Shown here: piece after piece, positions 23,556-60,797 of the stretch
Layout: every line of letters begins with the position of its first letter
Position numbering within the stretch: position 1 is the stretch's first letter
NCBI GenBank assembly: GCA_027459725.1
Contig: DAIDHK010000001.1
Coordinates: 67,411-131,410, forward strand
Direction: 5' to 3'
DNA length: 64,000 bases
Source: Candidatus Levyibacteriota bacterium
GTDB lineage: Bacteria; Patescibacteriota; Microgenomatia; Levybacterales; UBA12049
Program-made: the position numbers and the translations under genes
The notes under the pieces: generated by a model
The model's input: the letters and a program-made list of their open reading frames with translations, nothing else
Database searches by the model: none
Told to the model about the DNA's origin: nothing

Positions 23556-25994
23556 ATGAACCTGCCATTTTTTTCAAAGGCAAATAAAAAAACGGAAATA
23601 AGTTATTTTTTAGCCCTTACGTTACGAGATGAACAGATAGGAGCATATGTCCTCAAAGAAGAAGCAGGGAAATTGCACTTAGTAGGCAAGGGTGAAGAAA
23701 TCCTTGACAAATCTATTGAGCAATTAGACTTGAAAAATCAAATTGATATTTTAGACCGCATTATTAGTCAGGCAGAGAGTTCTTTACCCAAAAATGTTAT
23801 GACCCGCAAAACAATGTTTGGGGTCAAAGAAAGTTGGGTCGAAGATAACAAAATAAAAGCTGATTATCTGCATAAGCTCAAACAGATTTGCGATGAACTG
23901 GGCTTACAACCAACTGGGTTTTTAGTAATATCAGAAGCTATTGCGCATCGTTTGCAACAGGAGGAAGGAGCTCCTCTTACTGCCATCCTGGTGGAGATCG
24001 GAAAGAGTCAAATGACCGTTTCACATATTAAAGCAGGTAAGATCCTGGAAACCAAACATACCATAATCATTGAGTCTGCTATTCTGACACTAGATGCTTT
24101 GCTTAAACATTTCATTACCACTACAGTATTACCTACCAGAATCATTTTATTTGACGGTAATAACACTGCTAATTTAACCCAGGAATTTATAGCACATCAA
24201 TGGAGCAAGAGTCTGCCTTTTTTACACATGCCCCAGATTACACCTCTACCTCATGGTTTTGATGCACGCTCGGTTATTCTAGGAGCAGCTGAACAGATGG
24301 GGCTGCAGGTGTCCAGTGATATTAATATGGCTGGATTACCTGAGAAATCAGTTGAATCTAATCCTCCATTCATGGAGAATTTACAACCCGTCACCCCAAT
24401 AATGGACGCTACACCAAATAATCCAGAAGAGCAAGGTGAAGCTGAACCACCAGCTGAAGAATCAACAGAAACAATGGCTCGTGAGTTCGAGAAAAGGTTA
24501 AATGCCAGACTCAGTCCAGACGAGGAAAAAGACCTATCTTCAGTCGATGAAAGTAATGTAACTACTGCCGAAGAGTTTGGTTTTGTCAAAGGAGTCGATA
24601 TTTCAACTTTGCCGCATAAAGAACCACCCATCATGACAGAACATCATAGGCATGAAGAGAATGACATTATTTCGACAGAAGCCATTACAGATTATAGTAG
24701 TGACTACACAAACCATAACTTTAACCAACAGGAAGAACATATAAAACCAAAGCAAAAATTTTCATTGACCAATATGTCTTTCTTATCCGGCAGCATAAAT
24801 AAACTTTTACAGAAATTATTTATGAGTAGCTCTGACTCTCAATCTGATTCTAAAATCCCCCGCTGGATGATTATTGTACCCATTGTCTTACTATTAATAG
24901 TAGCTGGAATTGTATGGTATATTTTTAATGTTAAAGCAACTGTGAATCTTACCTTAAAACCAAAAATAGTTGAAGAACAGGGGAATATTACTTTTGCTCT
25001 CGGCTCTGGCAATGACTTTTCCAATAATACACTTGCGGCTTCGGATGTATCAGTTGACTTAAACGGCACTGCCAGTACGACTGCTACCGGCAGTAAAGCA
25101 GTAGGTTCCCCAGCCAAAGGTACTGTCACCATATATAACAACTCAAATAGTCCGGAGACATTAGCAGCAGGAACAACGATAACTTCCACGAATAATCTTG
25201 TCTTTACATTCGATAATAATGTGACTGTTGCTTCGGCCTCAGGAGATCAGTTTACGGGAACAAAACCAGGTACCGCCGATGTTAACGTAACTGCCAAAGA
25301 TATCGGCCAGCAGTACAATCTTCCTTCCGGCACCGTATTTTCTATTAATGCCGGTAATTCAGTAGCTGCCAAGAATAATAGTGCATTCAGTGGAGGAAGC
25401 AAACAGACAGTCACTGTAGTATCCCAGGCTGATATCAATAAACTGCTTAGCTCTTTACCTCAAAGTCTGCAGAACAAGGCTAAAAGCCAGCTACAAAGTC
25501 AGATATCCAGTGGACAGACACTTCTGCCTGGTATAACCAGTGATAATTTTAAATCCAAATCTTTTAATCACAATATAGGTGACCAGGCCAATTCAGTTAC
25601 GCTAACTGGTACAGTTACTTTCCATGGAGCAGCATATAATAATCAGGATTTACAGAATCTGGCAAAAACCATGTTAAAAGATAAATTTACAGGTAACTCT
25701 TCTTTGTCAGATAAAGGAATTAGTGCTAATATCAGTAACTTGCAACCTTCATCTGACGGCAAAACTATTGGAGCCACAATCGACTTGCAAGCCGGGCTTC
25801 TACCAAACATTGATACATCAAGTCTAATCTCTCAGGTGAGGGGTAAGACTGCCGCTCAGGCTACTCAGGTGTTAGACGGTATACCTCAGATTGAATCAAG
25901 TTCTATCAATCTAAGTCCTAATATACCTCTGATCCCGAAAATTTTACCGCGTTTTTCCAACCACATCACAATCAAGATCAACAGTAATGGCTAA
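23556..25994 (+). CDS. bitopic membrane protein: N-terminal cytoplasmic FtsA/PilM-like actin-fold domain, acidic linker, single TM, large Ser/Thr/Asn-rich extracellular domain
   Basis: The N-terminal ~260 aa align by eye to FtsA ('ISYFLALTLRDEQIGAYVLKEEAGKLHLVGKGEE' vs 'VVGLEIGTAKVAALVGEV...'; 'LTAILVEIGKSQMTVSHIKAGKI' vs 'VCVVDIGGGTMDIAVYTGG'). TM 'WMIIVPIVLLLIVAGIVWYIF' near residue 430; the ~370 aa after it are low-complexity, beta-rich ectodomain. Confidence 0.5.
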   Translation: MNLPFFSKANKKTEISYFLALTLRDEQIGAYVLKEEAGKLHLVGKGEEILDKSIEQLDLKNQIDILDRIISQAESSLPKNVMTRKTMFGVKESWVEDNKIKADYLHKLKQICDELGLQPTGFLVISEAIAHRLQQEEGAPLTAILVEIGKSQMTVSHIKAGKILETKHTIIIESAILTLDALLKHFITTTVLPTRIILFDGNNTANLTQEFIAHQWSKSLPFLHMPQITPLPHGFDARSVILGAAEQMGLQVSSDINMAGLPEKSVESNPPFMENLQPVTPIMDATPNNPEEQGEAEPPAEESTETMAREFEKRLNARLSPDEEKDLSSVDESNVTTAEEFGFVKGVDISTLPHKEPPIMTEHHRHEENDIISTEAITDYSSDYTNHNFNQQEEHIKPKQKFSLTNMSFLSGSINKLLQKLFMSSSDSQSDSKIPRWMIIVPIVLLLIVAGIVWYIFNVKATVNLTLKPKIVEEQGNITFALGSGNDFSNNTLAASDVSVDLNGTASTTATGSKAVGSPAKGTVTIYNNSNSPETLAAGTTITSTNNLVFTFDNNVTVASASGDQFTGTKPGTADVNVTAKDIGQQYNLPSGTVFSINAGNSVAAKNNSAFSGGSKQTVTVVSQADINKLLSSLPQSLQNKAKSQLQSQISSGQTLLPGITSDNFKSKSFNHNIGDQANSVTLTGTVTFHGAAYNNQDLQNLAKTMLKDKFTGNSSLSDKGISANISNLQPSSDGKTIGATIDLQAGLLPNIDTSSLISQVRGKTAAQATQVLDGIPQIESSSINLSPNIPLIPKILPRFSNHITIKINSNG

Positions 25995-41093: not shown

Positions 41094-42167
41094 TTAAACG
41101 TTAGTTGATCCCTTGTAGACTTTAGGAGTTAACCAGTCTGCCGGAGGATTTGACTCCTCCATGTCTTTATGATCCTGCTGCTGATTTTTTTTCTGGTTGG
41201 ATTGCTCCTGCTGCAGTTGCTGACGGATAACCTGTTGTCTGCGCTGCAATTGCTGCTGCTGATTATTCTGAGCTGGTCTGCGTTCCTGAACTGGAGCTTC
41301 CAAGATATCCTGGGTATTTTGCTCATTAGCTGGTTTCTGGTTAAAATTACGTTGTTGCTGCATTTGACGGTTAGTGTTTTGATTTACTGGATTTTGACGA
41401 CGCTGGTTATTATTTGGTCGGGTTTGCATTTGTTCCATTGGTCTTTTTGCACCTTTGCGTAGTAATATAGCAGCAATTTCAAAAGCTAAATAACTTGTAC
41501 CTTCCTGCTGGAAGTTATTGGTAGCAGCATGAATACCATATAATAGGTTTTGTGCTGTATCAATATCAAAATCATATCCTAAAGATAACAATAAATCAGC
41601 TACCTGCTCACTAACAGAGGAAAATCGGGGAGAAACTAAGACTACATTTCCATAGTTTTCATTTTCTTCTTTGTTATCTATATTTATTACAGTAACGTTC
41701 TTCAGACTTTCCGGATTGACCAGTTGTCCCAAATCTGACAAACGGGGAGTACCTACAGTAACAAATAATCCATTTAGCGACCCTCCATGGTTATAGCGGA
41801 CATCATCTTCGGTAAATGAAAAACCCTGTTCACCTGGCTTGACAATAATATTCAAAAATCCATTGTCAAGAGTATATGAGACTTTTTCAATTTCTCCTTC
41901 GTCCTTGTACGGGAAAGATACTATTAAATCTCCACCATTTCCCTGAATAGCAGTTTTAACTTTATCAATTCCCACCAGAGATGAATGCTCAACTAAAGGA
42001 GTTTCAGGTGCAATGATATTAACTTTTTTATTAGCTTGAGTAAAGGTAAGATAAATAGAGAGAGCTGCAGCCAACTCATCCAGACTAGGCTGTTGTCTAA
42101 CTGCAATAGTGACCTGATCATGCTGATCAATAATGTCTTTAATTTGCTGTAAAGCTTGACTATCCAT
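41094..42167 (-). CDS. DHH-family-like protein (NrnA position) with degenerate catalytic motifs and a Gln/Asn-rich C-terminal tail
   Basis: The N-terminus is collinear with NrnA ('DQHDQVTIAVRQQPSLDELAAALSI' vs '[22 protein letters not shown]'), but DHH is replaced by 'NIDNKEEN' and the Asp ligands are lost. The C-terminal ~110 aa are Q/N/R low complexity. Confidence 0.45.
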   Translation of the reverse strand: MDSQALQQIKDIIDQHDQVTIAVRQQPSLDELAAALSIYLTFTQANKKVNIIAPETPLVEHSSLVGIDKVKTAIQGNGGDLIVSFPYKDEGEIEKVSYTLDNGFLNIIVKPGEQGFSFTEDDVRYNHGGSLNGLFVTVGTPRLSDLGQLVNPESLKNVTVINIDNKEENENYGNVVLVSPRFSSVSEQVADLLLSLGYDFDIDTAQNLLYGIHAATNNFQQEGTSYLAFEIAAILLRKGAKRPMEQMQTRPNNNQRRQNPVNQNTNRQMQQQRNFNQKPANEQNTQDILEAPVQERRPAQNNQQQQLQRRQQVIRQQLQQEQSNQKKNQQQDHKDMEESNPPADWLTPKVYKGSTNV

Positions 42168-44961: not shown

Positions 44962-46323
44962 TTGATTAAACTAAGGAAAGTGAAATCTATTTTAATCCTG
45001 TTAATCGTGTTGATAGTAGCCGCAGCTGTTTCGTTAAGCGGAGGATTTAGTTCATTTTTACAAAGCGGCAATCAGGCCAGTCTTACCAGCGCAATTACCA
45101 TTACAGGAACTTCAACCGGATCAAACAGTTCGACAACTCTTAATGATACTTCCAAAAGCTTTACTCCAGGATCATTGGTAGGAGATACTATTACTATCAA
45201 TTCCGGTACCGGTGCTGGGCAGTCAGCAACTATTACTTCCAATACTAACAACCAAGTTACGATTGACAAACCCTGGACTACTACACCAGACACCTCTTCT
45301 AATTATACAATCACACCACCCGGAACAGGGGGATCAGCCAGCAGCGGCGGAATAGTTGTTGTTCCACCCCCCAATCAGAACGGCAAACAGTTACAGTTAA
45401 ATACCTTTGAGATGATTACTTTAACACCAACCTCAGCACCTACGCCAGCAACTGCTTGCGTATCTACAGATGGACCCAGAAACTCCAATTGTTCGTGTAC
45501 TACCCCGAGCGTCATCGCTGTTACCTGCAATGTTGGTAATACTAACCCTTCTGTTTTTAATGGGATTGGAGTTAATGAAACTTGCCCAGATGGAGGTGTT
45601 CCATGTGCGGATGTAAAACCAAAATATTATGCAGGTATAAGTTGCACTCCAACAAGCTGCGTATACCTTAAAAATACCTTAGTCATTCCTGGAGGTAGTA
45701 CGTTACCAGCAAGCCCAAGTTATTCAAAATATGAGAATTGTACAGGTGTGGCAAATGTTTGTTTTGATAAACCAGTCATTTACTTATATTCTGATCATGT
45801 CATAAATCATGTTTCTGTAAAACTAAATATTCCAGGAATTATTACTAAAAGTATTCCATCATACCCCGAAACTGGATGGAATAATATAACAGTTATACCT
45901 GGAGGTATAATAAATTATGATAATAAGATCTATAATGAATTATTCTATGAAACTAGCGTAAAAAAAACTCCTCAGTTAACCACAGGTTACGTATATTCTA
46001 CTAAAAATTTGCCAATCGAGTTAAATAATTTAACAACTAGACTAGGATTAAAACAATCAGAAAAGGAAGAATTTCTGAATTATTGGATGCCAAAGTTATA
46101 TGCATTAAATAAACCATATATATACGTTGGGATTCTTTTTGCAAAAGAAAAAGAACAAGTAGATAATGTTATTATCTCTCCAGAACCTGATACGACTATC
46201 TCTTTCTTGACCATATTTAAAGGATTAAGTACAGAAATCTTAGTCAAACAACCCACTCTTCCTAATATCCCCACAAGAAAAGGATTTGTCATGGTTGAAT
46301 GGGGAGGCGCAATAGAAAACTAA
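44962..46323 (+). CDS. secreted/membrane-anchored protein with Ser/Thr-rich region, Cys-rich central domain and conserved C-terminal domain
   Basis: Signal anchor 'ILILLIVLIVAAAVSL'; about 14 Cys between residues 165-260; no recognisable catalytic motif. Confidence 0.45.
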   Translation: MIKLRKVKSILILLIVLIVAAAVSLSGGFSSFLQSGNQASLTSAITITGTSTGSNSSTTLNDTSKSFTPGSLVGDTITINSGTGAGQSATITSNTNNQVTIDKPWTTTPDTSSNYTITPPGTGGSASSGGIVVVPPPNQNGKQLQLNTFEMITLTPTSAPTPATACVSTDGPRNSNCSCTTPSVIAVTCNVGNTNPSVFNGIGVNETCPDGGVPCADVKPKYYAGISCTPTSCVYLKNTLVIPGGSTLPASPSYSKYENCTGVANVCFDKPVIYLYSDHVINHVSVKLNIPGIITKSIPSYPETGWNNITVIPGGIINYDNKIYNELFYETSVKKTPQLTTGYVYSTKNLPIELNNLTTRLGLKQSEKEEFLNYWMPKLYALNKPYIYVGILFAKEKEQVDNVIISPEPDTTISFLTIFKGLSTEILVKQPTLPNIPTRKGFVMVEWGGAIEN

Positions 46324-46982
46324 ATTATTTTTAATGAAGATAAGATCTTATTTACTGTATTTTTATCATTTTGTCTAGTATTTTCAATAGAAAATGAGGT
46401 TTGAATAATAAATTGAATGTTATTACTTTCTAGGTAATAGACACTAGTTTGTAGCTTACCATAAGACTGACCATCAATAACTGGCCCGTTAATAATACTT
46501 GAAGAAAAGTCTGCTTGTTTACCACCAATATTTTTTTGCGTGTAGTCTATCTTAGTGTTTAGAGCAACTTCTTCTCTCTGTTTTAAACTTTCTGTGGAAT
46601 TCACGATTTCTATAATCTTGATAAAAGGTGAGATTGGGTCATAATTCCCATTTTGGACAGGAGACAGCTTTATAATTTTATATCCACTCAAAGATTCATC
46701 CTGAATAGTCCAATTTTGAGGATATTTTAGTGAATATATATCACCTGAGTATTGTTTCCAGTCATTAGTAGCACTAGAGGAAACAACTCCAGCTGAAATA
46801 GCCGGATTATTAGAAGTTACTGAATTATTGATTGTAGGATTGTTGGAGGGTGAGTTAGCGCTATTTTCAGATATACTTGAATTAGATTGCTTAGGAGAGG
46901 TCGAGTACCTTAATATGATAGAAAATAAAGCTACTAGAATTAATATAAATATACCTACAAAAACCAAAATTTTTTTATTCAT
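46320..46982 (-). CDS. membrane-anchored extracellular protein (last gene of the Clp/M4 operon)
   Basis: N-terminal TM 'ILVFVGIFILILVALFSIIL'; Ser/Asn-rich linker; C-terminal ~140 aa globular domain. Only 4 nt downstream of the TM-Clp gene. Confidence 0.45.
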   Translation of the reverse strand: MNKKILVFVGIFILILVALFSIILRYSTSPKQSNSSISENSANSPSNNPTINNSVTSNNPAISAGVVSSSATNDWKQYSGDIYSLKYPQNWTIQDESLSGYKIIKLSPVQNGNYDPISPFIKIIEIVNSTESLKQREEVALNTKIDYTQKNIGGKQADFSSSIINGPVIDGQSYGKLQTSVYYLESNNIQFIIQTSFSIENTRQNDKNTVNKILSSLKII

Positions 46983-46986
46983 AAAG

Positions 46987-49392
46987 TCACTTTGTTAAAA
47001 CAATCTGTCCACTGGCATCGACATTTAAAACGATCTTATCTCCCCTTTTAATCTGATCCTGAAGTTTTGCTTTTGCCAATAAGTCTTCTATATTATCCTG
47101 AATATACCTTCTCATCGGACGAGCTCCAAATTCAACGTCAGCACCTTCTTTAACAATTTTATCTATAACAACCTCGCTAAATGATAGACCAATATCCTGC
47201 TGTGCCATTTGACCAATAATGTCATTTAAAATTAACTGCACAATTTGCTTTAATTCCACAGGACCAAGTGGAGTAAAGGTAATAACATCATCAAAACGGT
47301 TTAGTAGTTCAGGACGGAAAATCTGATTTTGCTGCAGATATTCTAACAGCTTTTGCTGAAACACTTTATCTATTTTCTGTCCTGACACAACATTTTCACG
47401 AACAAATTCTGCTCCTGCATTTGAGGTGGCAATAATAATACTGTTCACAAAAGTAACCGTATGGCCTTTATTATCTGTCAAACGTCCATCTTCTAATACC
47501 TGCAAAAACAAATCAAGAATTTTAGGATGAGCTTTCTCAAATTCATCCAGCAAAACTAAAGAAAACGGATGATCATGAATTTTATCAGTCAGTTCGCCTC
47601 TTTCATTCCCCTCTCCGGGGGCTGAACCAAGTAGTCTTCTCTCTCCATCAATATCGGAGTACTCAGACATGTCCAGACGAATCATATTCTGTTCGCCGCC
47701 AAAATATACCGAAGCTAAGGCTTTAGCTGTTTCTGATTTGCCGACTCCAGTTGGCCCTAAGAAAAGGAAAGAAATGGGTCTATTCTGTGTAGTTAGGCCT
47801 GAGCGTAAACGCCTAAGTGCCTCAGCAATGGCCGAGATAGCCTGCGTCTGATCAATAACCTTTTCATGAATTTTATCTTCCAAATGCAATAATAATTCTT
47901 TTTCCTCTTTGGTAGGAGCACCTACATTAACCTGAGTTTTTAAACTGATTTGTGCCTCGATGTCACTGGCTAATACTACTTTTTGTCTTGACTTACCCAG
48001 ATAATGAGATTGTGAAGAAATTGCCACACTATTAGCCGCATCGTTGAGTAAGTTAACAGCACTACCTGGCAGCACCGCATCCTGCTCGTAACGGTCAGCC
48101 AGGTTAATAGCAGTCAGTACTGCATGATAAGTCATTATCACACCATTTTTATTTTCTATATCATCTGTTTTGGCAATTAGCATTTGCGTCGCAATATCTT
48201 TACTGGGTTCAAGAATATTGATTAAGGTAAACACTTCATGGAGTGGATTCTGCTGCATGTAAGTTTTGTAATTACCGGGTGACATACTGGCAATTACCGG
48301 CAGAAAGCCAGACTGTAAATAGGGCAACAGAGCGCCGGACAAATCTATAGCATAAGAACTTGCTCCCATCAAATTTTCAAAATCAGGAATATACAAAATT
48401 ACATTTCTGGCATGTGAGACTTCGGCTACGATCGATTCTAAACGAAGCTCTAAGTCACTACGGTCTTGCGCTCCGGCAATAAGCGGACCCACCATAAGCT
48501 GTAAAATCTTCTTATGATTAAGAAAGCCTGAAAGATGAGAGTAATAACTATCATTGGCCAACTCAGCCACCAGATTTTCTTTCCCTACACCATCTTCGCC
48601 CACCAGTAACACATTATTGTTTTCCCTTTTGCTCAGTGCTTCTAAAAGCGCTCTATATTGATCTTCTCTTCCTATTAAAAACGGTTCTATATCACGATAA
48701 CTAAAGTCCTGTGTATAATTTTTAGTCTCCGGGGTCCAACCATTTACAATCCCTTCGCCTATTCCTTCACCGGTAAAATTCATTCTAATTGGTCTGGGGA
48801 ACTCTTCGTTTTTAAATTTATAACGAGCCCATAATAATATTTGAAGTAGTTCCTCCTGTTTAATTTCATGATTGAAAAGTGTTTTGGTCTGATCTTCGCT
48901 CAAGAGCAAATAAGCAACCAGAGCGTCCATAGTAGTAATATAACTTCCGCCTATTTTCTCTACAATTTCTGCCGCTTTAGCAATAATTTGATCTGTGGGG
49001 ATATCTAGAACTTTAATATCCTCAACTGGTATCGCTGATTTTTCTAATACAAAAGACACGGTGGGAGTTTTTAATAATTTGTAAATAAATTTTTGCAATG
49101 TAATTGCAGAAAACAAAATTTGTAATAAATCTTTACTGCTAGACAGTGTCCATTTACCTTTATCATTTCTATTTACAGGTAGATAAGGATGAGATAAGTA
49201 GACATGAAAACGAAAAAATATTTCACAGATCAGAAACCATACAAAAACAAATAACGGCAAGCTAACTGGAAGTTTATGATTTAACTGGTTGAGAAAAAGT
49301 AAAATCACAAATACAAAGACTAATGTTCTGACAGACCGCAATAGCGCAGATGTATATATAATCTTTAATTTAACTAAACCTTCAATATTCAT
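46987..49392 (-). CDS. membrane-anchored Clp/Hsp100-family AAA+ ATPase with degenerate D1 and intact D2; no ClpP-docking loop
   Basis: Two N-terminal TM helices ('TLVFVFVILLFLNQL', 'LPLFVFVWFLICEIFF'), then a Clp_N-like repeat. D1 Walker A 'GEDGVGKEN' (canonical GEPGVGKT) and Walker B 'ILYIPDFEN' (canonical ILFIDELH) have lost catalytic residues. D2 is intact: 'FLGPTGVGKSETAKALA', '[29 protein letters not shown]', 'ATSN', 'GARPMRR'. No [ILV]G[FL] loop and no M-domain. Confidence 0.8.
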   Translation of the reverse strand: MNIEGLVKLKIIYTSALLRSVRTLVFVFVILLFLNQLNHKLPVSLPLFVFVWFLICEIFFRFHVYLSHPYLPVNRNDKGKWTLSSSKDLLQILFSAITLQKFIYKLLKTPTVSFVLEKSAIPVEDIKVLDIPTDQIIAKAAEIVEKIGGSYITTMDALVAYLLLSEDQTKTLFNHEIKQEELLQILLWARYKFKNEEFPRPIRMNFTGEGIGEGIVNGWTPETKNYTQDFSYRDIEPFLIGREDQYRALLEALSKRENNNVLLVGEDGVGKENLVAELANDSYYSHLSGFLNHKKILQLMVGPLIAGAQDRSDLELRLESIVAEVSHARNVILYIPDFENLMGASSYAIDLSGALLPYLQSGFLPVIASMSPGNYKTYMQQNPLHEVFTLINILEPSKDIATQMLIAKTDDIENKNGVIMTYHAVLTAINLADRYEQDAVLPGSAVNLLNDAANSVAISSQSHYLGKSRQKVVLASDIEAQISLKTQVNVGAPTKEEKELLLHLEDKIHEKVIDQTQAISAIAEALRRLRSGLTTQNRPISFLFLGPTGVGKSETAKALASVYFGGEQNMIRLDMSEYSDIDGERRLLGSAPGEGNERGELTDKIHDHPFSLVLLDEFEKAHPKILDLFLQVLEDGRLTDNKGHTVTFVNSIIIATSNAGAEFVRENVVSGQKIDKVFQQKLLEYLQQNQIFRPELLNRFDDVITFTPLGPVELKQIVQLILNDIIGQMAQQDIGLSFSEVVIDKIVKEGADVEFGARPMRRYIQDNIEDLLAKAKLQDQIKRGDKIVLNVDASGQIVLTK

Positions 49393-49721
49393 AGCTTAAT
49401 GAAAAATAAAAGAAATGAAAAAACTGGTAACAGGACAAAAACGCATATAAACATAAATTCAGCGCACAATAAAACCAACAACAGCAACAAGGAAATTAAA
49501 ATAAGAGCTGTCTTCACAAAAATCCCCATGCCGATAGAAAATCCTACCAGACCCTGCCTGTATTCATTTTTAATAGGTTGAAAAAAAGTTCTTAACAATA
49601 ACCCGACAGAAAACATACGTAAGAAGGAGGAATTAAGTGAAGAAAAATACGACAACAGTCCAAGCGGAGCATTTACATACCAGAATTTCAAAAACTCAAC
49701 CGGCAACAGTGAATATTGCAT
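49389..49721 (-). CDS. small polytopic membrane protein
   Basis: 110 aa, three predicted hydrophobic segments. Its stop overlaps the TM-Clp start (translational coupling). Fills the gap downstream of the M4 protease. Confidence 0.4.
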   Translation of the reverse strand: MQYSLLPVEFLKFWYVNAPLGLLSYFSSLNSSFLRMFSVGLLLRTFFQPIKNEYRQGLVGFSIGMGIFVKTALILISLLLLLVLLCAEFMFICVFVLLPVFSFLLFFIKL

Positions 49722-49781
49722 ACTAGTCTAGCATAGAAAGTTTAGTTCAAAAAAGCAAACCAGCTCAAGCCAAAGATACTT

Positions 49782-51863
49782 CTACTGACATGCAAAAGTA
49801 CACAACTGCAATCCCCCTGCTCCATGTGAACATTTACTGACGACCTTACATCCCGGCAAAGCCATGTTTGCCTGATTTAATAAACCAGACGGGACCTTCC
49901 ACTCAATCAAATAGTTGCCAGTTTGTGAGATAGTTGTTGAATAAGGTCCAATGGTTATGCCATCGGGTAATTGAGCTGTCAGCTGCAATTGTCCAAAACT
50001 AAAATCAGAAAAATCAACCGCTCCAGTGAGACTCGTAACACCTGTAAACTGCTGACCGCCAGAACTTAAAGTCAAGTTTACATTCGATATACCCTCATTA
50101 CCATCATAATATCCGTTGCCATTAAGATCGTTATAGACGATAACATGTAAAGATAAATCCGCTGAGGGAGTACCTGTAAGACTAACTGTACCATTTGGAC
50201 TCACAGTTGGAGATGGTGAGACTCCTTTTGTCGACAGAGGCTGACTGCTGCATGCAGGAGCAACTTCAGTTCTATTTAAACATACAGCTCCCTGCTGTGT
50301 ATTAACCGGTTGCTGATCCATCTCAGTAGCCTGTAAAGCTTTTTCAACATTAACACAAGTATTAGAGTACCCTCCATATAAATCATTACAGGCTAACAGC
50401 ATGTCAATATACATATCGGAAAAATTTGCTGAAGGAATTAAATAATGAGTTAGCGCCCGATATTGAATCTGATAACTGGCACTGCCTATACCATCAATCT
50501 GACAGCCGTTAAAACTTCCTCCCTCAGTCATCAAATAAAAAGCTTTATTCATCACACCCTCGTTGGAATGAACTCCTCCACTGTCTTGAGTATCACAGAT
50601 ATACAACGGAGAAAAAAGTTTATCCGGCTGACCAGTAAGTGTAGGATCATTCAGATATCTAAAAGGTGTTTTAACTCCCGCAATATGAACATCCGCTCCT
50701 ATTGACCAGTTATGATCAATGCCGGTAGCAAAAATATCTGAATTGCTTTCATTTAATGCTCCTGACTGATAGCTATAAATTAATCCTGCAGTGTAATGAG
50801 TTACCGCATGCGTTAATTCATGTGTGACGATGTCCAAAACATCCATACCGGCACATAATTCAATCCCACCGTCTACATAAGCTGAATTAGGACAGGGGAA
50901 TCCCGCAATATCAGCTCTGTTCACATAACCAAAAAGGGTTGCACCTTTATTATCTATACTGTCGCGGTTAAAATTGTTTAGATAAAACTGGTATACCTGC
51001 CCGAAAATATCATAAAGTTTATTGACGTCAGTGTTCATGGAGGGGGGCTGACCCTCTGTACGACTCACTACGCAATTATCAGAGTTGTTACAGTTGCTGA
51101 TGTTGCGGGCTAAAAGTGTTTCTACCTGATTTTCCTGGTAAACAATTTTTCCACTGGTTAAGTCAATAAAATAACGTGTAGCAAAATCCGGTGGTTTGTT
51201 CGATGTAGTTATTAAAACAGCTAAAACATGATAGGTAGTGCCATTATTGCTCAGGCCTAAAGCCTGCAGATTTAATAAGTACTCATTATCATTAGCAACC
51301 TTTAAATTTAAATGAGGATTATCCTTTCTTGCCTGGTTTAAGGCAATCATTTCAGCTTTCTCCCGGTTGATTTGGGTACTCAAAGTAGCAGGTTGCTTAG
51401 TAACCACTACCCCCGAAGCAGCATATATCTCGTCCACATGCTGAATGTGAACCGCGATAATCCCATCATAAACAGGTATATTATCTATGGTTTGCTGATA
51501 AAAATAATGTTCGGTGCCTGGTAGATAGTAGGTAGGACTTTGCTGGTCAACCAAGCTTCTCTGTAAAACAACCTTGGAATAACTATTTAAACCATTCCCA
51601 AAAATCCCGTTAGGATTTGCGCTAATAAAATCTAATGCTGCTGCCTCCCCCTGCTGATTTGATTTATATAAATAACCATTTTCAGTGTACAAGGAAAAAG
51701 CATTATCATTGCTATGTGTAACAGTATAAGAATCTTTGCCTAATATCTGAGGACTGATCCTAATCTGACTGACAAAATATGTTATTAAAGTAACTAATAT
51801 AAGTAATACGAAAGCTTCGACTAACCAGTATCTTCTCAAATACTTTAAAACCTTTTCTCTCAT
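49782..51863 (-). CDS. secreted M4 (thermolysin-like) zinc metalloprotease with N-terminal signal anchor/propeptide and C-terminal beta-rich extension
   Basis: '[33 protein letters not shown]' = HEXXH plus the downstream Glu ligand. '[17 protein letters not shown]' and '[16 protein letters not shown]' are collinear with thermolysin ('[34 protein letters not shown]...GGVHINSGIINKAAYLI'). Confidence 0.85.
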   Translation of the reverse strand: [693 protein letters not shown]

Positions 51864-51923: not shown

Positions 51924-54900
51924 CTAGACAATACCGGAATTCGGGGAATCTTCATTGCTGATCAAGGCCGCTGCAGCTACAGCAGGAGGAGCAAATGTTG
52001 TACCCGTCACACCAGACGGCATCGAGACCGGAGAAATCGGCTGAGAGGGTAACTGATCAACAATAGCTGCAGGCGAGCCCGTTAGTAGTCCTGCATCGAC
52101 AGAATTCACGGGAGAACCAGAATTTAATCCTCCTACAGAAGGCATCTGAGAGGAGACTCCCGCAACAGCATTATTCATTGAGTTTGTATAACTTTGAGCG
52201 AGATCTCCCACTGTTTGCATTAAAGGCTGGGGATTATTCAAAGTGCCATCAGCAATACCAGGATCGGTCGCAATAACTGGCGACTGAGACAATGGCTGAC
52301 TACTCACGCTTAAACCTGAGGTAGGAATACTGGTACTCACAATGGGTTGAGATGCTATAGTTGAAGCTGATGCAGACAGAGTATCTGCTGATTGAAGTGT
52401 AGTAGGATTTGCAGACAACTTTGTATTTGTAGGCTGAAGTGCAGAGGGATTGTCCGTGGTATCTACAGCTTGAGGCTGGGGTAGTAATTTGATAAAGCTA
52501 AATTCAGATTTTTGCTGATCATAGTCAATTTTGATAATATCTCCTGCTATAAAAGTTTTGTTAATAATTTTCATGGCAATTGGATTTTCTATCGAGGATT
52601 GAATTAATCTGCGTAGCGGACGAGCACCGTACTGGGGATCATAACCTTCCTTAGCTAAAACTTCCAGAGCTCCATCAGTAATTTGTAAAGAAAACCCCTG
52701 TTCCTTGAGTAATTTATCAGTCTTATCAACTCCTAACTTGGCAATATACTTCATATCCTGCTGACGAAGCGGCTGAAACATAATTATTTCATCAAAACGA
52801 TTCAGCAATTCCGGACGGAAAAATTTATGCAAATCATCAGAAATTTTAGCTTGCATTTCCTTATACATTTTCTGATATTCCTCAGGAGTCTTAGTAGGTT
52901 TGGATAATTGATCCTGAATATCCTGACTGCCAATATTGGAAGTAGCGATAACAATAGTATTTTTAAATGAGATAGTATTACCTTTATTATCAGTCAAACG
53001 TCCGTCTTCTAATAACTGTAATAAAATATTAAACACATCCGGATGTGCTTTCTCTATTTCATCAAGCAGAACAATAGAATAAGGCTTGGCACGTACAGCC
53101 TCTGTTAATTGTCCTCCTTCTTCATAGCCCACATAACCGGGAGGCGCTCCAATTAATTTTGCCACCTCATGCTTTTCCATGTACTCTGACATATCCAAGC
53201 GCACCATTGCGTCATCCCGTCCAAATAGAATCTCCGCTAATGTTTTGGCTAACTCAGTCTTTCCTGTTCCTGTTGGACCAAGAAAAATAAAAGAAGCGAT
53301 CGGACGATTAGCCGCTGATAAACCAATCCTACCTCTACGCACTGCTTCTGCTACACCACTAACAGCCGGCTCCTGATCAATCAAACGCTGATGTATACGT
53401 TTTTCCAATTCCAGCAATTTCTGGCTTTCATCTTCAGTTAATTTGGTGATAGGAATACCGGTCCATGCGCTAACAACTTTTTCAATATCGGAACGCAACA
53501 CGCTATTATCTTTCCTTTTACCTGAGGACAACTGTAATTTAACTTCAGCCGCAGCTTCGTCTAACAGATCAACAGCTTTGTCAGGCAAATATCGCTCACC
53601 AATATACTTTTTAGAAAGTTTAACCGCCTGTTCTAACGCTTCATCCGGAATAGTGACATGATGATAATTCTCATACTTAGTTTTCAGAACCCTCAACATC
53701 TTTACAGCTGTTTGTTCATCCGGCTCTTCCGCCACAATTGGCTGGAAGCGGCGTGCAAATGCTTTATCTTTCTCAAAATATTTTCTGTATTCTGAAGTCG
53801 TTGTTGTTCCAATAATCTGCAATTGTCCGCGTGCTAAATTTGGCTTGATAATATTAGAGGCATCAAGCGACCCCTCATTATCACCTGTCCCAACCAGTGT
53901 ATGGATTTCGTCAAAAAACAAAATAATTTGTCCGCCGCTGGACATAGAGTCACGCATCACACTGCGAAGTCGCTCTTCAAATTCCCCCCTGTGGCTTGCT
54001 CCTGCAACTAGAGATGCAACATCTATCTGAATGATTTTTTTATTTTTTAATTCCTCAGGAACATTTCCTGTTACGATAGCTTGAGCTAAACCTTCTACAA
54101 TAGCTGTTTTCCCAACTCCTGCTTCACCGATAATAATAGGATTATTTTTGGTTCTGCGTAAAAGAATATGTACTAATCTGTCTACTTCTCTTTCCCTCCC
54201 TGCCACAGGATCCAATCCCCCCTCTTTTGCTTTTTCTGTCAGATCCACACCAAATTTATCCAGCACAGACTTCCTGCCTTCTATATAAGCTGAAGACTTT
54301 CCCAATTGAGCTACTACATCAGCTTTTTTTAAACCTTCTGCCTGTAACGTCGTCCCACTGGAAGAAGAAAAAACCGCCAATAAAATATCTTCCGGAGCAA
54401 TAAATGAGCTACTGCGCTCTTTAGCGGTGGTAAATGCACTTTCGAAGATTTGTTTGACTTGATCACTTAAAGTGGGCTGGCCTGCAAAAGTACCTACGAT
54501 TTCTTTAGCTTGTATTTCCCGGGATAGCTTCGCAACATCAACTTTAAATTGTTCTAGAAGCTTATAAATATCTGTGTCATATAACAGACCAAATAGCAAC
54601 TGTTCAGGCATTATAACTGCCTGCTGTATACGCATTGATTCCTGCTTAGCATGCATTAAAACCTGCATGGAACGGGAATCCAGATGAGATAGAGCTGATA
54701 AATCCTCACGACGTGAAGGGTCCATAACTGCATTGTTAGATGGAGTAGGAACAGATACCGGAATAGAAGATGGAGCTGTCGTTGTAGTAGTACTGGTCTG
54801 CTGAAAAGTAGGAACGGGTACAGCCACTGCTACCGGAGCTACTACCATTGGTCCGCTCGCACTAATTGTGGCTGTACTACTCTGAGTAGTCTGTGTAGTT

Positions 54901-54995
54901 TGTGTAACAGGAGAATTCACCTCCGATTGAGCAGAAGGATTAGAATCATTATTTTTTGCACTAAATAAATTTCCTAGCATATATCTATTGTTCAA
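51924..54995 (-). CDS. Clp/Hsp100-family AAA+ ATPase, ClpA-like architecture (Clp_N-D1-D2), without M-domain or ClpP-docking loop, with ~230-aa disordered Ser/Pro/Thr/Gln-rich C-terminal tail
   Basis: D1 '[18 protein letters not shown]' and '[12 protein letters not shown]'. D2 '[17 protein letters not shown]', '[29 protein letters not shown]', 'GARPLRR'. The D1-D2 linker is short. The sequence after sensor-1 ('[19 protein letters not shown]...') has no IGF/VGF tripeptide. Confidence 0.85.
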
Positions 54996-55024: not shown

Positions 55025-57925
55025 TTATTCTGATTTATTTTTGAACTCTTCAACAGTTTTATCCTTTTTTTCATCAGCATATTCATTCACCGATACGTCC
55101 AAATGCCCCTCCAGTTTGTCCTGCTGAACTGAGGTTGTTCTTTGACTAAGAAGTGTATCCTCTTCCTCTTCCTGTTTGCCCAAGTTGGCCAGTACTTCTT
55201 TAGCAGCTTGTGCTTTAGCTTTTAAGTAAGCCACAATTTCAGATTGTGAGAAACCTCCAATCAGCAAAAACGGCAGAATTCCAGACACACGCTGCATGCC
55301 CTGACTTACTTGTAATTGATCCTGAGAGGAAAGTAAAGAAATTGTCTCTGCAATATCCTCAATATCTGAAATCAGCCATGACTTACGATCACTGATCCTT
55401 CCATCCAGCGTTTCTGGAACATCCATGTTAGTATAGTTATCAGCCCACATCTGTCTGACAGCTTCATAATCCTCAATGCTGACGGTCTGAATGCGGTTAG
55501 AAGAAGGCAGATTTGCTCCCGCATTGGAGATCTGAACACCATTTTGCGCTAAAAGTTCTAACACCTTTACGGCTAAGGGATCTCCCTTTTGTTTGGCATC
55601 CTGCAAAGTCTTTAATAAACGTTGAACTTGAGAAATAATATCGGGAGATTGTGCAGATGCCAATAATTCAGTAGCCAATTTATTACCCTTTCGACTTTCC
55701 TGTTTGAGTTGATCATGTAATTTGGTAACTGTTGGCAGATCAACTTTACCTTTTTGAGAAAATAGTTTAGTAGCAGCTAATACATTTACTGCGACAGGAT
55801 TACTACTAGCACTTTCCTGATGCAATGTCTGTACAATTGTATTAAGGGTTGAGGGCAGAGTAGACGTAGACTGAGTAGCAATTTTTTGAATCATTTGGGA
55901 AATACTTTCGATTTCCGTTTTATTAATAGTATTCATAGTTGAGACGACCAGCGAAGCGGTAGTATTACCTTTTTCACTTTGCTCAACTATGGTCTGACGT
56001 ATCTCATTAGCTTTAGTTCTCTCCATCTGACTAGCCGCAATTGTAGGATTTAAGATTGTATTCATGGTTTGTTGAACCGTATTTGCTGTCTGTTTGCTGA
56101 CACTGGTAGCCGTAGCCAGAGACGCCGCCTGTAAAATGTTCTTTGCTAAAACATTTCCCTTCTGACTCTCAACCATTAATCTTCCTCTTATCTGGCGGTA
56201 TGTATCCTGTTGAGCACCAATCGCACTGGTCGGGTTAGCAATTTTCGACAACGTTTGTTCATAACGTAGCGAGGTAGGAGAGGATTTATTAACTATCATA
56301 TTTTTCTCAAATTGCGCTATGTCACGCATAGTGGGAACATTAAGATTAGTCAGGCGCATAAGCTCAGAATTTATTTTTACAGGTATTTGAACCGGTTGAT
56401 TCCTTTTAATATCCACGTTTACTGGTACTTTAAAATTAGCCCCAAAAGGCAACGACTTAGCCAGACCTGTGGGTTTATACTTACTTGGAGGTTGAGGGGA
56501 AATCGGTGAAGGAGGGGGGGGATTAAACATAGCAGGACTTCTGGCTATCAGCTGCTGTACCCATGCGTTCTCATTAATTGAAAATGAATTAAGATAATCA
56601 AGAAAAATCTGCAAAAGAATAAACGGTAATAAGATAACTACCCATAACATCATTAATGCCACAATATATTCTGCAAAAGTTTCGACATAATTTATGCTAT
56701 TGTTAATACCGACCTGTTGTTTGGGTCCACCAAGCAAAATATTAATAGCTGTAGGAAACCTATCCAACAACTCCGGTGAGCCGGGTTTAAAGGTTGAAGG
56801 ATCCTGTCCGCCTAATACAGCGGAAGAATTATACGTATCTCCTGCCAAATCTGTATGTGTATAGTCTGTGAAGTTAAGAGGAATATAATTTACCCATACG
56901 CTTACCAAGCCGGCAAGTAATATTGAAAACAATGGTGCATACAATAACCAGCGGAAGAATTCACCTATCCAAATTTTGGCCGTATTACGAACCGGACTAA
57001 AAAATAGAAGTAAGGGGAAAACGGGAGAGAGGATAATAAAAAACCACATGATAATTTTACGCAGCAACAAAATACCAACCATAACGTAATACGTGATGGC
57101 TGTCAGCTTGACGAGTAACAGAGCAATAAAAGCAGATTCCGTAGCGGAAGGATCTGCCAAGCGCAAACCAACAAATGTGGCGTAATCCCATCCTACAAAC
57201 AAGAGATCTTTTTGTGAAATATTATTGGGAGCATATGTAGGACTTTTAAGAAAGAATAACTGGATGATATCTCCTAACTGGTAGAGAAATTGAATTATAC
57301 TCCAGGAAAAATATACTAAAATCACAATTACTATAAAGCGGATAATAAAACGCCTAACGCTTAAACTTCTACCCCGCGTTGCTATAATGACAATAGCGGC
57401 AACAATCAATACTACTGCCAGCATTGCATATACAATATAACTAATTTTTAACCAGAAAAGCTGTAAAGGATTTTGAGAGGGAGATCCTCCACTTCCCGGC
57501 ATAAGATATACCCAACCAAAATTTTTTGCGCTTAAAGTCCAGTCAAGCAAAAGTCCCGCGCGGGCAGCATTTTGCCCGACAAAAGTTACTTCACTATCAG
57601 GCACATAAGTTCCAGTCGGCACTGGAGTGGTACCCACACCAATTGCACCTGCTCCTCCACCAGGAGTAGGAGAAGGCGTTGGCGTGGCAGTAGGGGTGGG
57701 AGAAGGAGTTGGTGTAGGTGTATTTATGGGAGCAGAACAACCACATGATGGACCAGATAATCTACTACTAGGTGCTACACAAAAACAAGTTTGTCCAACA
57801 GGGCATGTACCATTGGTACTACCCCCACAAGTATAAGTTGCTGCATCTACAAGATAAGCAGAGTTAAAAAATAAACCAAAATAAACTAACAATGCAATGA
57901 AGATGCTGGGCAGTTTTTTCAACAT
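55025..57925 (-). CDS. large polytopic membrane protein: signal peptide, Cys-rich and Pro/Thr-rich ectodomain, ~7 TM helices, ~480-aa C-terminal domain with degenerate 'KGNxLAxxxLxxA' repeats (VirB6/TrbL-like topology?)
   Basis: Signal 'MLKKLPSIFIALLVYFGLFFNSAYLVDA'. Eight Cys in 'TYTCGGSTNGTCPVGQTCFCVAPSSRLSGPSCGCS'. (TP)n linker. Multiple hydrophobic helices between residues ~150-470. Repeats 'ESQKGNVLAKNILQAA', 'EQSEKGNTTASLVV', 'ESRKGNKLATELLASA', 'AKQKGDPLAVKVLELLA'. Confidence 0.6.
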   Translation of the reverse strand: MLKKLPSIFIALLVYFGLFFNSAYLVDAATYTCGGSTNGTCPVGQTCFCVAPSSRLSGPSCGCSAPINTPTPTPSPTPTATPTPSPTPGGGAGAIGVGTTPVPTGTYVPDSEVTFVGQNAARAGLLLDWTLSAKNFGWVYLMPGSGGSPSQNPLQLFWLKISYIVYAMLAVVLIVAAIVIIATRGRSLSVRRFIIRFIVIVILVYFSWSIIQFLYQLGDIIQLFFLKSPTYAPNNISQKDLLFVGWDYATFVGLRLADPSATESAFIALLLVKLTAITYYVMVGILLLRKIIMWFFIILSPVFPLLLFFSPVRNTAKIWIGEFFRWLLYAPLFSILLAGLVSVWVNYIPLNFTDYTHTDLAGDTYNSSAVLGGQDPSTFKPGSPELLDRFPTAINILLGGPKQQVGINNSINYVETFAEYIVALMMLWVVILLPFILLQIFLDYLNSFSINENAWVQQLIARSPAMFNPPPPSPISPQPPSKYKPTGLAKSLPFGANFKVPVNVDIKRNQPVQIPVKINSELMRLTNLNVPTMRDIAQFEKNMIVNKSSPTSLRYEQTLSKIANPTSAIGAQQDTYRQIRGRLMVESQKGNVLAKNILQAASLATATSVSKQTANTVQQTMNTILNPTIAASQMERTKANEIRQTIVEQSEKGNTTASLVVSTMNTINKTEIESISQMIQKIATQSTSTLPSTLNTIVQTLHQESASSNPVAVNVLAATKLFSQKGKVDLPTVTKLHDQLKQESRKGNKLATELLASAQSPDIISQVQRLLKTLQDAKQKGDPLAVKVLELLAQNGVQISNAGANLPSSNRIQTVSIEDYEAVRQMWADNYTNMDVPETLDGRISDRKSWLISDIEDIAETISLLSSQDQLQVSQGMQRVSGILPFLLIGGFSQSEIVAYLKAKAQAAKEVLANLGKQEEEEDTLLSQRTTSVQQDKLEGHLDVSVNEYADEKKDKTVEEFKNKSE

Positions 57926-59213: not shown

Positions 59214-60797
59214 ATGCCGGTTGAACAATTGTCAAAACGTATCCTAACAAGTATTATGAATTTCACTGAAGGTACCGGTGGGGAAGGGCGCTTGCCAGTT
59301 CTCGAAATTGTACCTGAGGGTAATTTTGCCAGAACAGATAATGGAAATAATATCTTCCGTGAGGGTGCTAACTTATTTGGAATATTTACTAATAAATTTG
59401 CCCGCTCAACTCTTACTTTAAATCCAGCTCCGCATGTTCCAGGTAAGATACCAGCCGAAGTTGTAAGAAATGCTGCCCTCAGAAGATTTGGTTTTATACC
59501 TAATCTGGGAAATCTAAACGAAATTGGAACTCATTTAGTAGTCTGGTGGCAAAAACTTGATACACCGCCTGAAACTCCTATAGAAGAACAAACAGGTTCT
59601 CGTTGTGATATGCTCGGCCTTGCGCAACTGCCTGAAACAGATCGCAAGAATTATTTTTCAGCTATTAGTCAACAAATTGAAAATGGTGTTAATTTAATGG
59701 CTGAATGTTTAGGTTTATCTGAGGACGGACTTAGAAATTTAAGAGTTTATGGTTTATTTGGACATGCCACTTGGGAAGAGCGTAATAAATTTGGCCTAAG
59801 TAGAGGCTCACAAAGCGCACCTGACGGACATTTAAATATTGTCTACTTACCTGAAGATGTTAGTAAAAAGACGAATCCGGAAGCAGTTACGGCTAAAGAA
59901 ATGGTTAAACAGATTGGTCCATGGGATACAGTGGTTGATAACCTATTTGGCAGTGGAATACAAAGAATGATTCAGAATACTGCACTATCACGACTGAATC
60001 CGCGGGATGTAAAGGAAAATAATCCGATTTATGTCACCAGATTGTCAGATTATACCACCAGCAGTGACTTCTCTCATATGAATTTCTTTGAAGGCTATAA
60101 GTTGAATTTTGGCCAATCCATAAGCATAGAACGATCACTTGCAGTACTTACTGACATCCTTAAAAAAGGCTCAGACCTCTATTCAGCTGCTTTGTCCAAC
60201 TATGAGGCTTACTTTAAAAACAGTCATAATCCTGACAGGAAAAAAGCCATATTTGATAATTTAAAAACAAGTGCTAAATTATTTGGTTTTGGTGATCGTA
60301 TGGCAGGTGAATTTGCTAATTTCGTTTTCTCCATAAAACCGACCCATGGTCAGCTAAATAAATGGATTAATGAAATTGAAGCTGATATACACAGCCACAA
60401 TGCCGGTACTGATAACTCTGAAATATCTGCCGACAATTTAGCTTATTTAAAAAAAGTCAAACGCGTATATCAAAGAATCGCTGTAAAATTACACGCGACA
60501 GGCGGACGGGAAAGCTTGAGAAAACATCTTCAGCATGTTAACAATTTATCCCCTCTGGATGCTGATCTACTTCTATCAGTGATTGAAGACAGATTCAAAC
60601 TAATGGATGAAAAAGTGACAAACATTTCCTCTATTATGTCCCCCTTCCTCTCAGGCAGCTATATGCTTGATTACACAAGGGATAATCAGGGACATATTAT
60701 GGTTAAGGGCATATCCTTGAGCACACGTCTTGGCACTGACAAAGGAGTAGTAGAAGATTTAGGAGGATATGTTATTCATCGAGCCACGGGTATATAA
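59214..60797 (+). CDS. hypothetical cytoplasmic protein (527 aa), no recognised domain
   Basis: Long uninterrupted ORF with no TM or signal peptide and a mixed alpha/beta character. No motif I can assign from memory. Preceded by a 560-bp AT-rich intergenic region. Confidence 0.5.
   Translation: MPVEQLSKRILTSIMNFTEGTGGEGRLPVLEIVPEGNFARTDNGNNIFREGANLFGIFTNKFARSTLTLNPAPHVPGKIPAEVVRNAALRRFGFIPNLGNLNEIGTHLVVWWQKLDTPPETPIEEQTGSRCDMLGLAQLPETDRKNYFSAISQQIENGVNLMAECLGLSEDGLRNLRVYGLFGHATWEERNKFGLSRGSQSAPDGHLNIVYLPEDVSKKTNPEAVTAKEMVKQIGPWDTVVDNLFGSGIQRMIQNTALSRLNPRDVKENNPIYVTRLSDYTTSSDFSHMNFFEGYKLNFGQSISIERSLAVLTDILKKGSDLYSAALSNYEAYFKNSHNPDRKKAIFDNLKTSAKLFGFGDRMAGEFANFVFSIKPTHGQLNKWINEIEADIHSHNAGTDNSEISADNLAYLKKVKRVYQRIAVKLHATGGRESLRKHLQHVNNLSPLDADLLLSVIEDRFKLMDEKVTNISSIMSPFLSGSYMLDYTRDNQGHIMVKGISLSTRLGTDKGVVEDLGGYVIHRATGI

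Follow-up and report, generated by a model that had tools for sequence, protein, structure and literature searches.

Architecture and Family Assignment

A stretch of 64,000 nucleotides from a Candidatus Levyibacteriota bacterium (assembly GCA_027459725.1, contig DAIDHK010000001.1, positions 67,411 to 131,410 of the forward strand; hereafter the window) carries at 46987..49392 a gene for an 801-amino-acid two-ring homologue of the Clp/Hsp100 ATPases. The protein is predicted to be anchored in the membrane by an N-terminal hairpin, its first AAA+ module (D1) is degenerate, its second (D2) keeps the catalytic motifs, and neither module has the aromatic pore-1 residue. The gene for a 110-amino-acid membrane protein, here called the partner (49389..49721), lies directly upstream. 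This architecture is well supported and would surprise a specialist in AAA+ proteins; for a host lineage that is uncultured, we infer from it a function, which is discussed below. The two genes, and all parts of them for which coordinates are given, are on the minus strand.

The Pfam scan of the ATPase gave matches to AAA_2 (2e-43), ClpB_D2-small (1e-20) and AAA_lid_9, the D1 lid, and only weak generic P-loop matches in D1; no Clp_N and no peptidase domain was matched. With phmmer, the similarity to Bacillus subtilis ClpC was 4e-112 (379 bits). The AlphaFold2 (AF2) model built from a 91-sequence alignment had a mean predicted local distance difference test (pLDDT) score of 83.9, and its top Foldseek matches were protomers of ClpC, ClpB and ClpA hexamers, with target template-modelling scores (TM-scores) of 0.82–0.86 over about 590 residues. 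The structure prediction suggested as a check when this gene was first read from the letters alone (the original prediction) thus returned a Clp body, together with transmembrane helices at a pLDDT of about 90. By its fold and its D2 signature the 801-residue ATPase is a class-I Clp/Hsp100 homologue.

None of the Clp subfamily marks looked for (M-domain, ClpP loop, NCBIfam cutoffs for ClpA, ClpB and ClpV) was found. The NCBIfam scores were far below the cutoffs for ClpB (TIGR03346, 432.5 against 1232 bits), ClpA (TIGR02639, 392.8 against 993) and ClpV (TIGR03345, 344 against 885), and no equivalog among ClpA, ClpB, ClpV, ClpK and ClpG reached its cutoff. The M-domain is absent, ClpC residues ~407–467 being without counterpart and only 8 residues (461–468) lying between the D1 and D2 phmmer alignments. 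In the D2 region equivalent to the ClpP-docking loop (47353..47412) there is no [ILV]G[FL] tripeptide; the sequence is NVVSGQKIDK (family consensus EEV.KG...DK.F), and the VGF loop of ClpC aligns to VSGQKI. Genes of a type VI secretion system, the expected context of ClpV (TssH), were not found in the inspected neighbourhoods. The ATPase is shown to be a paralogue specific to Levyibacteriota and the candidate phyla radiation (CPR), with a ClpA/ClpC-type body and neither M-domain nor ClpP-docking loop.

ClpA and ClpC (PDB 3j3t, 7abr and 7uiv) share with it the two-module protomer fold at 30–38% identity, a Clp_N-like N-domain, and a D2 of the HCLR clade with AAA_2, ClpB_D2-small and all ATPase motifs; ClpA, like the ATPase, has no long M-domain. 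Unlike them, the ATPase has an N-terminal membrane hairpin and an obligate small membrane partner, has lost the D1 Walker-A Thr, Walker B and Arg fingers, the IGF/VGF loop and both pore-1 tyrosines, and has a D2 pore loop two residues shorter. ClpC further carries a short M-domain (MecA binding), the VGF loop and a double Clp_N repeat, of which the ATPase lacks the first two, its N-domain being only weakly Clp_N-like. The long coiled-coil M-domain which ClpB/Hsp104 has between the D1-small domain and D2 is likewise missing.

The Clp/Hsp100 ATPases known to us are soluble proteins, with a mechanism that is defined by their pore-loop tyrosines. In a literature search, neither a membrane-anchored Clp/Hsp100 nor this CPR family was found described, and public records name the protein generically ("ATP-dependent Clp protease ATP-binding subunit"). 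The claim that the architecture is unusual for the ClpA, B, C, E, V and L families is in agreement with this result and with the NCBIfam scores. As a statement of homology the term Hsp100 is correct; a functional threading machine of that type is improbable, the pore-1 aromatics, M-domain and ClpP loop all being missing. The combination of a conserved Clp lineage with membrane integration, a D2-only motor and the discarding of pore tyrosines in both rings would be new.

Degenerate D1 and Conserved D2

Motif states in both modules were read from the phmmer alignment with B. subtilis ClpC and from alignments of 120 close and 26 distant homologues. In D1 (residues 236–465, 47998..48687), Walker A (48574..48600) reads GEDGVGKEN, as compared with the canonical GEPGVGKTA. 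The change of Thr to Glu is found in 116 of the 120 close homologues; the change of Pro to Asp, which was initially given along with it, is present but has no bearing, as any residue is allowed at that "x" position. Walker B (48370..48399) is ILYIPDFENL in place of ILFIDELHTL; its Asp is replaced by Pro in 117/120, and the catalytic-Glu position is occupied by D (60 sequences), E (54) or Q (6). Both D1 Arg fingers are gone, ERRF of ClpC corresponding to HEVF (in LHEVFTLI, 48220..48243) and RR to E[AV] in the family. At the pore-1 loop (AGAQDRSDLE, 48448..48477), KYRG of ClpC is replaced by QDRS, and the aromatic residue is absent in all 120. Retained are the P-loop glycines Gly265, Gly268 and Gly270, which are invariant, the Walker-A Lys (K in 111, R in 9) and T or S at the sensor-1 position.

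None of the 26 distant members has an intact Walker-B DE dyad in D1: it is lost in 25, and P0186 reads DD. The D1 Arg fingers and pore-loop Tyr are missing throughout this set. Wide variation is seen there in the residue that follows the P-loop Lys and at the catalytic-Glu position, which argues that D1 catalysis is not what is conserved. Hydrolysis by AAA+ proteins requires the Walker-B acidic residues and trans Arg fingers. Judged from these motifs, D1 is likely to be hydrolysis-dead and would act as a rigid scaffold; it may still bind nucleotide, since the P-loop glycines and Lys are kept. In D1-large, 47 of 160 columns are at least 90% conserved and the non-synonymous divergence (dN) from an 88% identical orthologue is 0.06, with the synonymous divergence (dS) saturated. 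Such conservation and low dN point to a selected pseudo-ATPase domain, and the fact that a degenerate D1 is conserved at all argues for a scaffold and not for decay.

The D2 module with its D2-small domain (residues 536–801, 46990..47787) presents the opposite picture. Walker A (47731..47757), Walker B (47527..47559), the sensor-1 Asn (47413..47436), the Arg finger LNRFD (47287..47319) and sensor-2 (47101..47130) are invariant in the 120 close homologues, and the catalytic motifs persist in the 26 distant representatives. D2 would accordingly be read, from its motifs, as the only ring hydrolysing ATP. The D2 pore-1 loop (LLGSAPGEGNERGELTDKI, 47578..47634) is altered: GSPPGYVGYDEGG of ClpC corresponds to GSAPGE-G-NERG in the ATPase, so that GYVGY has become G[EQ]--G, with a two-residue deletion and no aromatic residue in 120/120 close homologues, and the canonical GYVG loop is found in 0/26 distant members.

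The original prediction had been made by eye. The alignments with ClpC and with both sets of homologues confirmed that the D1 Walker residues are lost, not displaced, including the replacement of the DE dyad by PD in ILYIPDFEN, and the canonical Walker A/B, sensor-1 and Arg finger of D2 were all recovered. The notion of a pseudo-ATPase scaffold gains from the fixed degenerate states and the purifying selection. That first reading was right but incomplete; it had missed the loss of the D1 Arg fingers and of both pore-1 residues, the absence of M-domain and ClpP loop, and the conservation of all this across the family.

Membrane Anchor and Small Membrane Partner

The AF2 model of the ATPase begins with an amphipathic helix (residues 3–13) followed by helices 16–38 and 44–64 at a pLDDT of about 90; together they occupy 49201..49392, the two transmembrane segments TM1 and TM2 being encoded at 49279..49347 and 49201..49263, respectively. 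A Kyte–Doolittle 17-residue mean of at least 1.6 was obtained for TM1 in 99% and for TM2 in 85% of 91 homologues. The hairpin is flanked by net charges of +4 (N-flank) and +3 (C-flank) around a 9-residue loop, and R22, E57 (inside TM2) and P69 are invariant. These models show an N-in/C-in helical hairpin as the predicted anchor in the cytoplasmic membrane, since the ATP-using body must be cytoplasmic and the flank charges fit. The two N-terminal transmembrane helices first noticed in the translation are therefore upheld by AF2, by hydropathy and by flank charge.

The N-domain which follows (residues 81–197, 48802..49152) is all-helical, with a pLDDT of about 90, and contains the motif Y[IV]TT.D...AYLLL.E..TK.LF. 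In hhalign it was matched to canonical N-domains with 73% probability (E = 3e-5, 83 columns), and the NCBIfam ClpA model aligns from ATPase residue 130 to model position 79. The domain appears weakly but detectably Clp_N-like and divergent; the "Clp_N-like repeat" noted initially has moderate support from these two alignments but not from Pfam.

The stop codon of the partner gene and the start codon of the ATPase gene overlap in ATGA (49389..49392), as read directly from the junction, where the small open reading frame (ORF) ends ...AAG CTA TGA and the large one starts ATG AAT ATT. No clear Shine-Dalgarno sequence precedes the ATPase ATG within the overlap, and none is obvious in the 60-nt spacer upstream of the small ORF (49722..49781, minus strand), which contains TTGAAC...TAGACT right before its ATG. 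The lack of an obvious Shine-Dalgarno sequence at either start is consistent with reinitiation coupling, possibly from a leaderless or short-leader transcript.

For the partner, AF2 (pLDDT 93) gave two long helices, 3–36 and 58–107, forming a helical hairpin. They are joined by the invariant loop T-FF-xP-KNEYR-G (partner residues 45–57, 49551..49589), and E88, inside the long hydrophobic helix, is invariant too. The loop region is probably cytoplasmic, since it is basic (+3). Scans of Pfam, NCBIfam and PADLOC gave no match for the partner, nor did a fold search of the PDB (best E = 4.8). Its profile recovered 1,363 homologue clusters, nearly all of 108–110 aa and all "hypothetical", none with a Pfam domain.

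When the partner was used as a probe against one genome per species, 105 loci were found, of which 80 were retrieved, most of them from Candidatus Levyibacteriota. The membrane Clp-like gene is the next same-strand gene after the partner in all 78 loci with downstream sequence, and partner homologues are directly upstream of it in every neighbourhood inspected, including loci where gene callers had missed them. The most frequent spacing is –4 (ATGA), in 19 of the 65 loci scored. The gene order and overlap show the partner to be obligate and the pair to be, as far as can be read from the sequence, translationally coupled; the coupling to an upstream 110-aa membrane protein had already been surmised for the window.

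One locus, L025 (5983..8601, plus strand), carries an 872-aa in-frame fusion of a full partner to an ATPase without N-terminal helix and TM1, the last helix of the partner standing in for both. This locus is from a Candidatus Levybacteria metagenome-assembled genome, in which a real fusion and an assembly artefact are indistinguishable, and it is weak evidence. It suggests that TM1 and the long helix of the partner have the same orientation in the membrane. Strict gene linkage, together with this natural fusion, points to a stoichiometric complex of ATPase and partner, and the formerly unannotated partner family gains a concrete functional context.

Conservation and Distribution

A word-indexed search (E <= 1e-20) returned 327 homologues of the ATPase, with few exceptions from Candidatus Levyibacteriota or elsewhere in the CPR; those bearing names were Levybacteria, Roizmanbacteria, Saccharimonadales or "Patescibacteria group". 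The top 120 are of about 800 aa, 50–88% identical and covered over their full length. In an exhaustive search with the family-specific N-terminal 235 residues, clustering at 50% left 72 representatives, every full-length one of 780–830 aa, and the N-terminal module (residues 1–235) is restricted to this ~800-aa architecture.

A decaying duplicate, or an annotation artefact caused by a wrong start or a cleavable signal peptide, might be thought of in view of the lost D1 catalytic residues and of Pfam AAA or Clp_N matches that are no better than weak in the N-terminal half. The probability of either is negligible. More than 300 full-length homologues at about 50% identity, in which the degenerate motifs are themselves conserved, and a dN of 0.02–0.17 with saturated dS against the 88% orthologue, refute a pseudogene-like relic by family-wide conservation. 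The ATGA overlap with the conserved gene upstream settles the position of the start codon. A signal peptide was rejected since two hydrophobic helices, basic at either flank, are conserved in the family and since a body that depends on ATP has to lie in the cytoplasm.

Many species-representative records carrying the module (L010, L011, L014 and about 40 more loci) are titled "uncultured Gammaproteobacteria bacterium", and a few Methylomirabilota, Sulfotelmatobacter or Lysobacterales. Rather than true finds of the module outside the CPR, such titles probably reflect placeholder names or mis-binning.

Proposed Mechanism

We favour, at somewhat less than even confidence, a non-threading, D2-driven remodeller of membrane-proximal clients which acts with the partner. 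Six protomers would form a ring, as in other Clp ATPases, a step extrapolated from the monomer model. The N-domain/D1 face would lie against the membrane, because the anchor is N-terminal, and would be ringed by the 12 transmembrane helices of the ATPase and by those of the partner. ATP hydrolysis in D2 would then be converted to movements of the D1/N-domain/transmembrane-partner assembly and not to threading, because neither ring has an aromatic pore-1 residue. Clients embedded in the membrane or close to it may be remodelled, held or released by these movements, much as by NSF or Torsin, without processive unfolding. The motifs indicate that the ATPase is probably no processive unfoldase; the absence of aromatic pore-1 residues in both rings, of the ClpP loop and of the M-domain speaks against a ClpP partner and against a ClpB-type, DnaK-coupled disaggregase. 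A role in membrane or envelope protein quality control is suggested because the neighbours are a canonical Clp, dnaK-dnaJ and secreted peptidases.

The main rival is a threading extractor at the membrane, like FtsH, Msp1 or Pex1/Pex6-Pex15, which would pull membrane or secretory proteins from the bilayer; we regard it as fairly unlikely. The acidic non-aromatic D2 loop PG[EQ]G[DNE]ERGE would grip a special substrate, e.g., basic segments, and the partner would be an adaptor or substrate-entry gate. In its favour, an N-terminal anchor would turn the D1 entrance towards the membrane, D2 is an intact motor with a conserved pore-2 region, the neighbours are proteostasis genes, and Pex1/Pex6 can thread although its D1 is inactive and has no aromatic loops (PMC9265785). 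Unlike Pex1/Pex6, however, the ATPase lacks the aromatic pore-1 residue in its active ring too, where the loop is two residues shorter in every close homologue and GYVG is missing from all the distant ones. The pore-1 aromatic grips the substrate, and the exchange of Tyr for Ala in ClpA (Y259A or Y540A) eliminates or hinders degradation by ClpAP (PMC8666677). The extracted chains would moreover have no obvious destination, because there is neither a ClpP-docking loop nor a fused protease.

Several observations weigh against the non-threading remodeller. Conservation extends to the pore-2 loops and the remaining channel, with DGRLTDNKG invariant, and a non-aromatic, perhaps charge-based grip on a special substrate could exist. 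D1 keeps an acidic residue at the catalytic-Glu position (D/E in 114/120), T/S at sensor-1 and a new Glu beside the P-loop Lys, and non-canonical nucleotide chemistry is conceivable there. The hexamer, the complex with the partner and the ATPase activity are all extrapolated from sequence, and the transmembrane topology from hydropathy, charge bias and AF2. Finally, a proteostasis role is argued from the neighbourhood alone, and roughly half of the loci have unrelated genes upstream.

AAA+ machines work via pore-loop threading or via N-domain movements (PMC9265785), and the closest functional analogues of the ATPase appear to be Pex1/Pex6-Pex15 and Torsin-LAP1, each with important differences. 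Pex1/Pex6, with Pex15/PEX26, is a double ring with a hydrolysis-dead D1 and a D2 motor; its D1, like that of the ATPase, is without Walker B, Arg finger and aromatic pore loops and keeps the Walker-A Lys, serving assembly (PMC9265785). It also works at the membrane with a small membrane protein. It belongs, however, to the classic AAA+ clade and not to HCLR, and the likeness is one of analogy, with no homology beyond the AAA+ fold. Pex1/Pex6 is soluble and recruited by its anchor, whereas the ATPase is itself anchored, and its D2 keeps the aromatic pore loops and threads, whereas the D2 of the ATPase has lost them.

Torsins, which act with LAP1/LULL1, are related to Clp/Hsp100 D2, have no aromatic pore loops, carry an N-terminal hydrophobic segment, are found at membranes and depend on membrane-protein cofactors (PMC5425593). 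They are single-ring and lumenal and receive their Arg finger from an AAA-like cofactor; the ATPase has two rings and an invariant D2 Arg finger, and its partner is a 110-aa two-helix hairpin with no AAA-like fold. The ATPase may thus represent a prokaryotic counterpart to the Torsin and Pex1/6 situations of eukaryotes, and its family a natural experiment on the use of a Clp scaffold without threading.

In FtsH and Msp1 (N-terminal transmembrane segment) and in LonB (inserted one), a hexameric AAA+ ring is held at the membrane for membrane protein quality control. FtsH, archaeal LonB and Msp1/ATAD1 differ from the ATPase in being single-ring with aromatic pore loops, and FtsH and LonB carry a fused protease (M41 or Lon S16), of which no counterpart was detected. 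NSF resembles the ATPase as a two-ring AAA+ protein with one inactive, structural ring that works largely via N-domain and adaptor movements (PMC9265785). In NSF, however, the roles of the rings are exchanged, D2 being inactive and D1, with a retained YVG pore loop, active (PMC8666677); NSF is, besides, soluble and eukaryotic.

The invariant intramembrane glutamates E57 (ATPase TM2) and E88 (partner) allow a further alternative, to which we give a low probability: no proteostasis factor, but a new ATP-driven membrane machine that gates or remodels something in the envelope. Through the inactive D1 and the N-domains, the D2 ring would have a rigid connection to at least 18–24 transmembrane helices, arranged as a crown and carrying these glutamates. 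Its target might be a channel, a host-contact structure, or a step in the assembly of lipids or of the cell surface, and the Clp scaffold would then have been repurposed as was that of Torsin in eukaryotes. In CPR bacteria, with their minimal proteostasis networks and a life as episymbionts that depends on the envelope, a membrane ATPase module so tightly conserved throughout the lineage is a candidate for lineage-specific envelope biology.

Genomic Neighbourhood

The window is a housekeeping stretch with genes for NusA, IF-2, PNPase, RNase J, FtsK, AlaRS and LepA; no tRNA gene was found in it. Upstream of the module are a secreted M4 (thermolysin-like) peptidase (49782..51863, minus strand; Pfam) and then a canonical two-ring Clp ATPase paralogue of 1023 aa (51924..54995, minus strand; Pfam, NCBIfam). 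A canonical Clp was found on the same strand, upstream of the module, in 39/73 related loci, with no other gene in between in 18. DnaJ was found in 17 related loci, DnaK in 10, and GrpE and HrcA, both recognised by eye, in 10 and 8; NusA and IF-2 follow downstream of the module. M4 or S8 peptidases occupy the same position in L006, L021, L041, L070, L074, L076, L082 and L086. What surrounds the module is a set of proteostasis genes at a conserved place in the chromosome, and not a mobile or defence island.

The proximity of the canonical Clp raises the question of a tether or regulator, in which the ATPase, through mixed hexamers (conserved D2 interface), stacking or docking, would localise or modulate the soluble unfoldase at the membrane. 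The intact D2 Arg finger, sensor-2 and D2-small domain would make canonical inter-subunit contacts possible, and a canonical Clp is present in the window as well. The adjacency is, however, not universal, the strictly linked gene is that of the small membrane protein and not the canonical Clp, and the two paralogues (~360 bits mutually) are no closer to each other than the ATPase is to B. subtilis ClpC. Mixed rings are, in addition, without direct evidence, and we consider this reading improbable.

It is very improbable that the two genes, for an AAA+ ATPase and a small membrane effector, make up an anti-phage defence or conflict system, a reading which was also weighed. The PADLOC models PDC-M37B and DolB match the ATPase, and a small membrane protein beside an ATPase is a common defence layout. 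These matches, however, cover only the generic D2 AAA_2 region at 100–120 bits, against 380–430 bits for Clp models, and the partner is without any PADLOC match. The module is a conserved, lineage-wide core gene, in a housekeeping synteny (Clp/DnaKJ ... NusA-IF2-S15-PNPase) which extends across many genomes with no variable island; this synteny and the generic nature of the matches ruled against the defence reading.

As to the neighbouring genes themselves, the M4 peptidase carries an FTP propeptide motif and an SdrD_B domain. In the canonical Clp of the window the D1 pore-1 Tyr is replaced by His, as in 31 of 33 canonical paralogues of related genomes, with GYVGY kept in D2. It has long S/T/P/Q-rich low-complexity N- and C-terminal extensions, no long M-domain and no obvious [ILV]G[FL] ClpP loop.

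Downstream of the ATPase, a 220-aa ORF (46320..46982, minus strand) starts 4 nt past the ATPase stop; it was considered as a member of the module and rejected, since the other loci examined show no conserved counterpart of it downstream of the module. It consists of an N-terminal transmembrane or signal segment and an S/N-rich linker, and gave no Pfam or PADLOC match. The next ORF (44962..46323, plus strand, 453 aa) has an N-terminal transmembrane segment, a T/S/G-rich region and a Cys-rich region, without Pfam match, and relatives in 5 related loci (e.g., L031, 448..1878).

Four further large ORFs are without a Pfam family at E <= 1e-5, located at 55025..57925 (minus strand, 966 aa), 23556..25994 (plus strand, 812 aa), 59214..60797 (plus strand, 527 aa) and 41094..42167 (minus strand, 357 aa). 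Unassigned large ORFs of this kind are typical CPR "dark matter". The 357-aa ORF lies between the IF-2 and PNPase genes, where L001 and L005 have unannotated genes of 338–371 aa.

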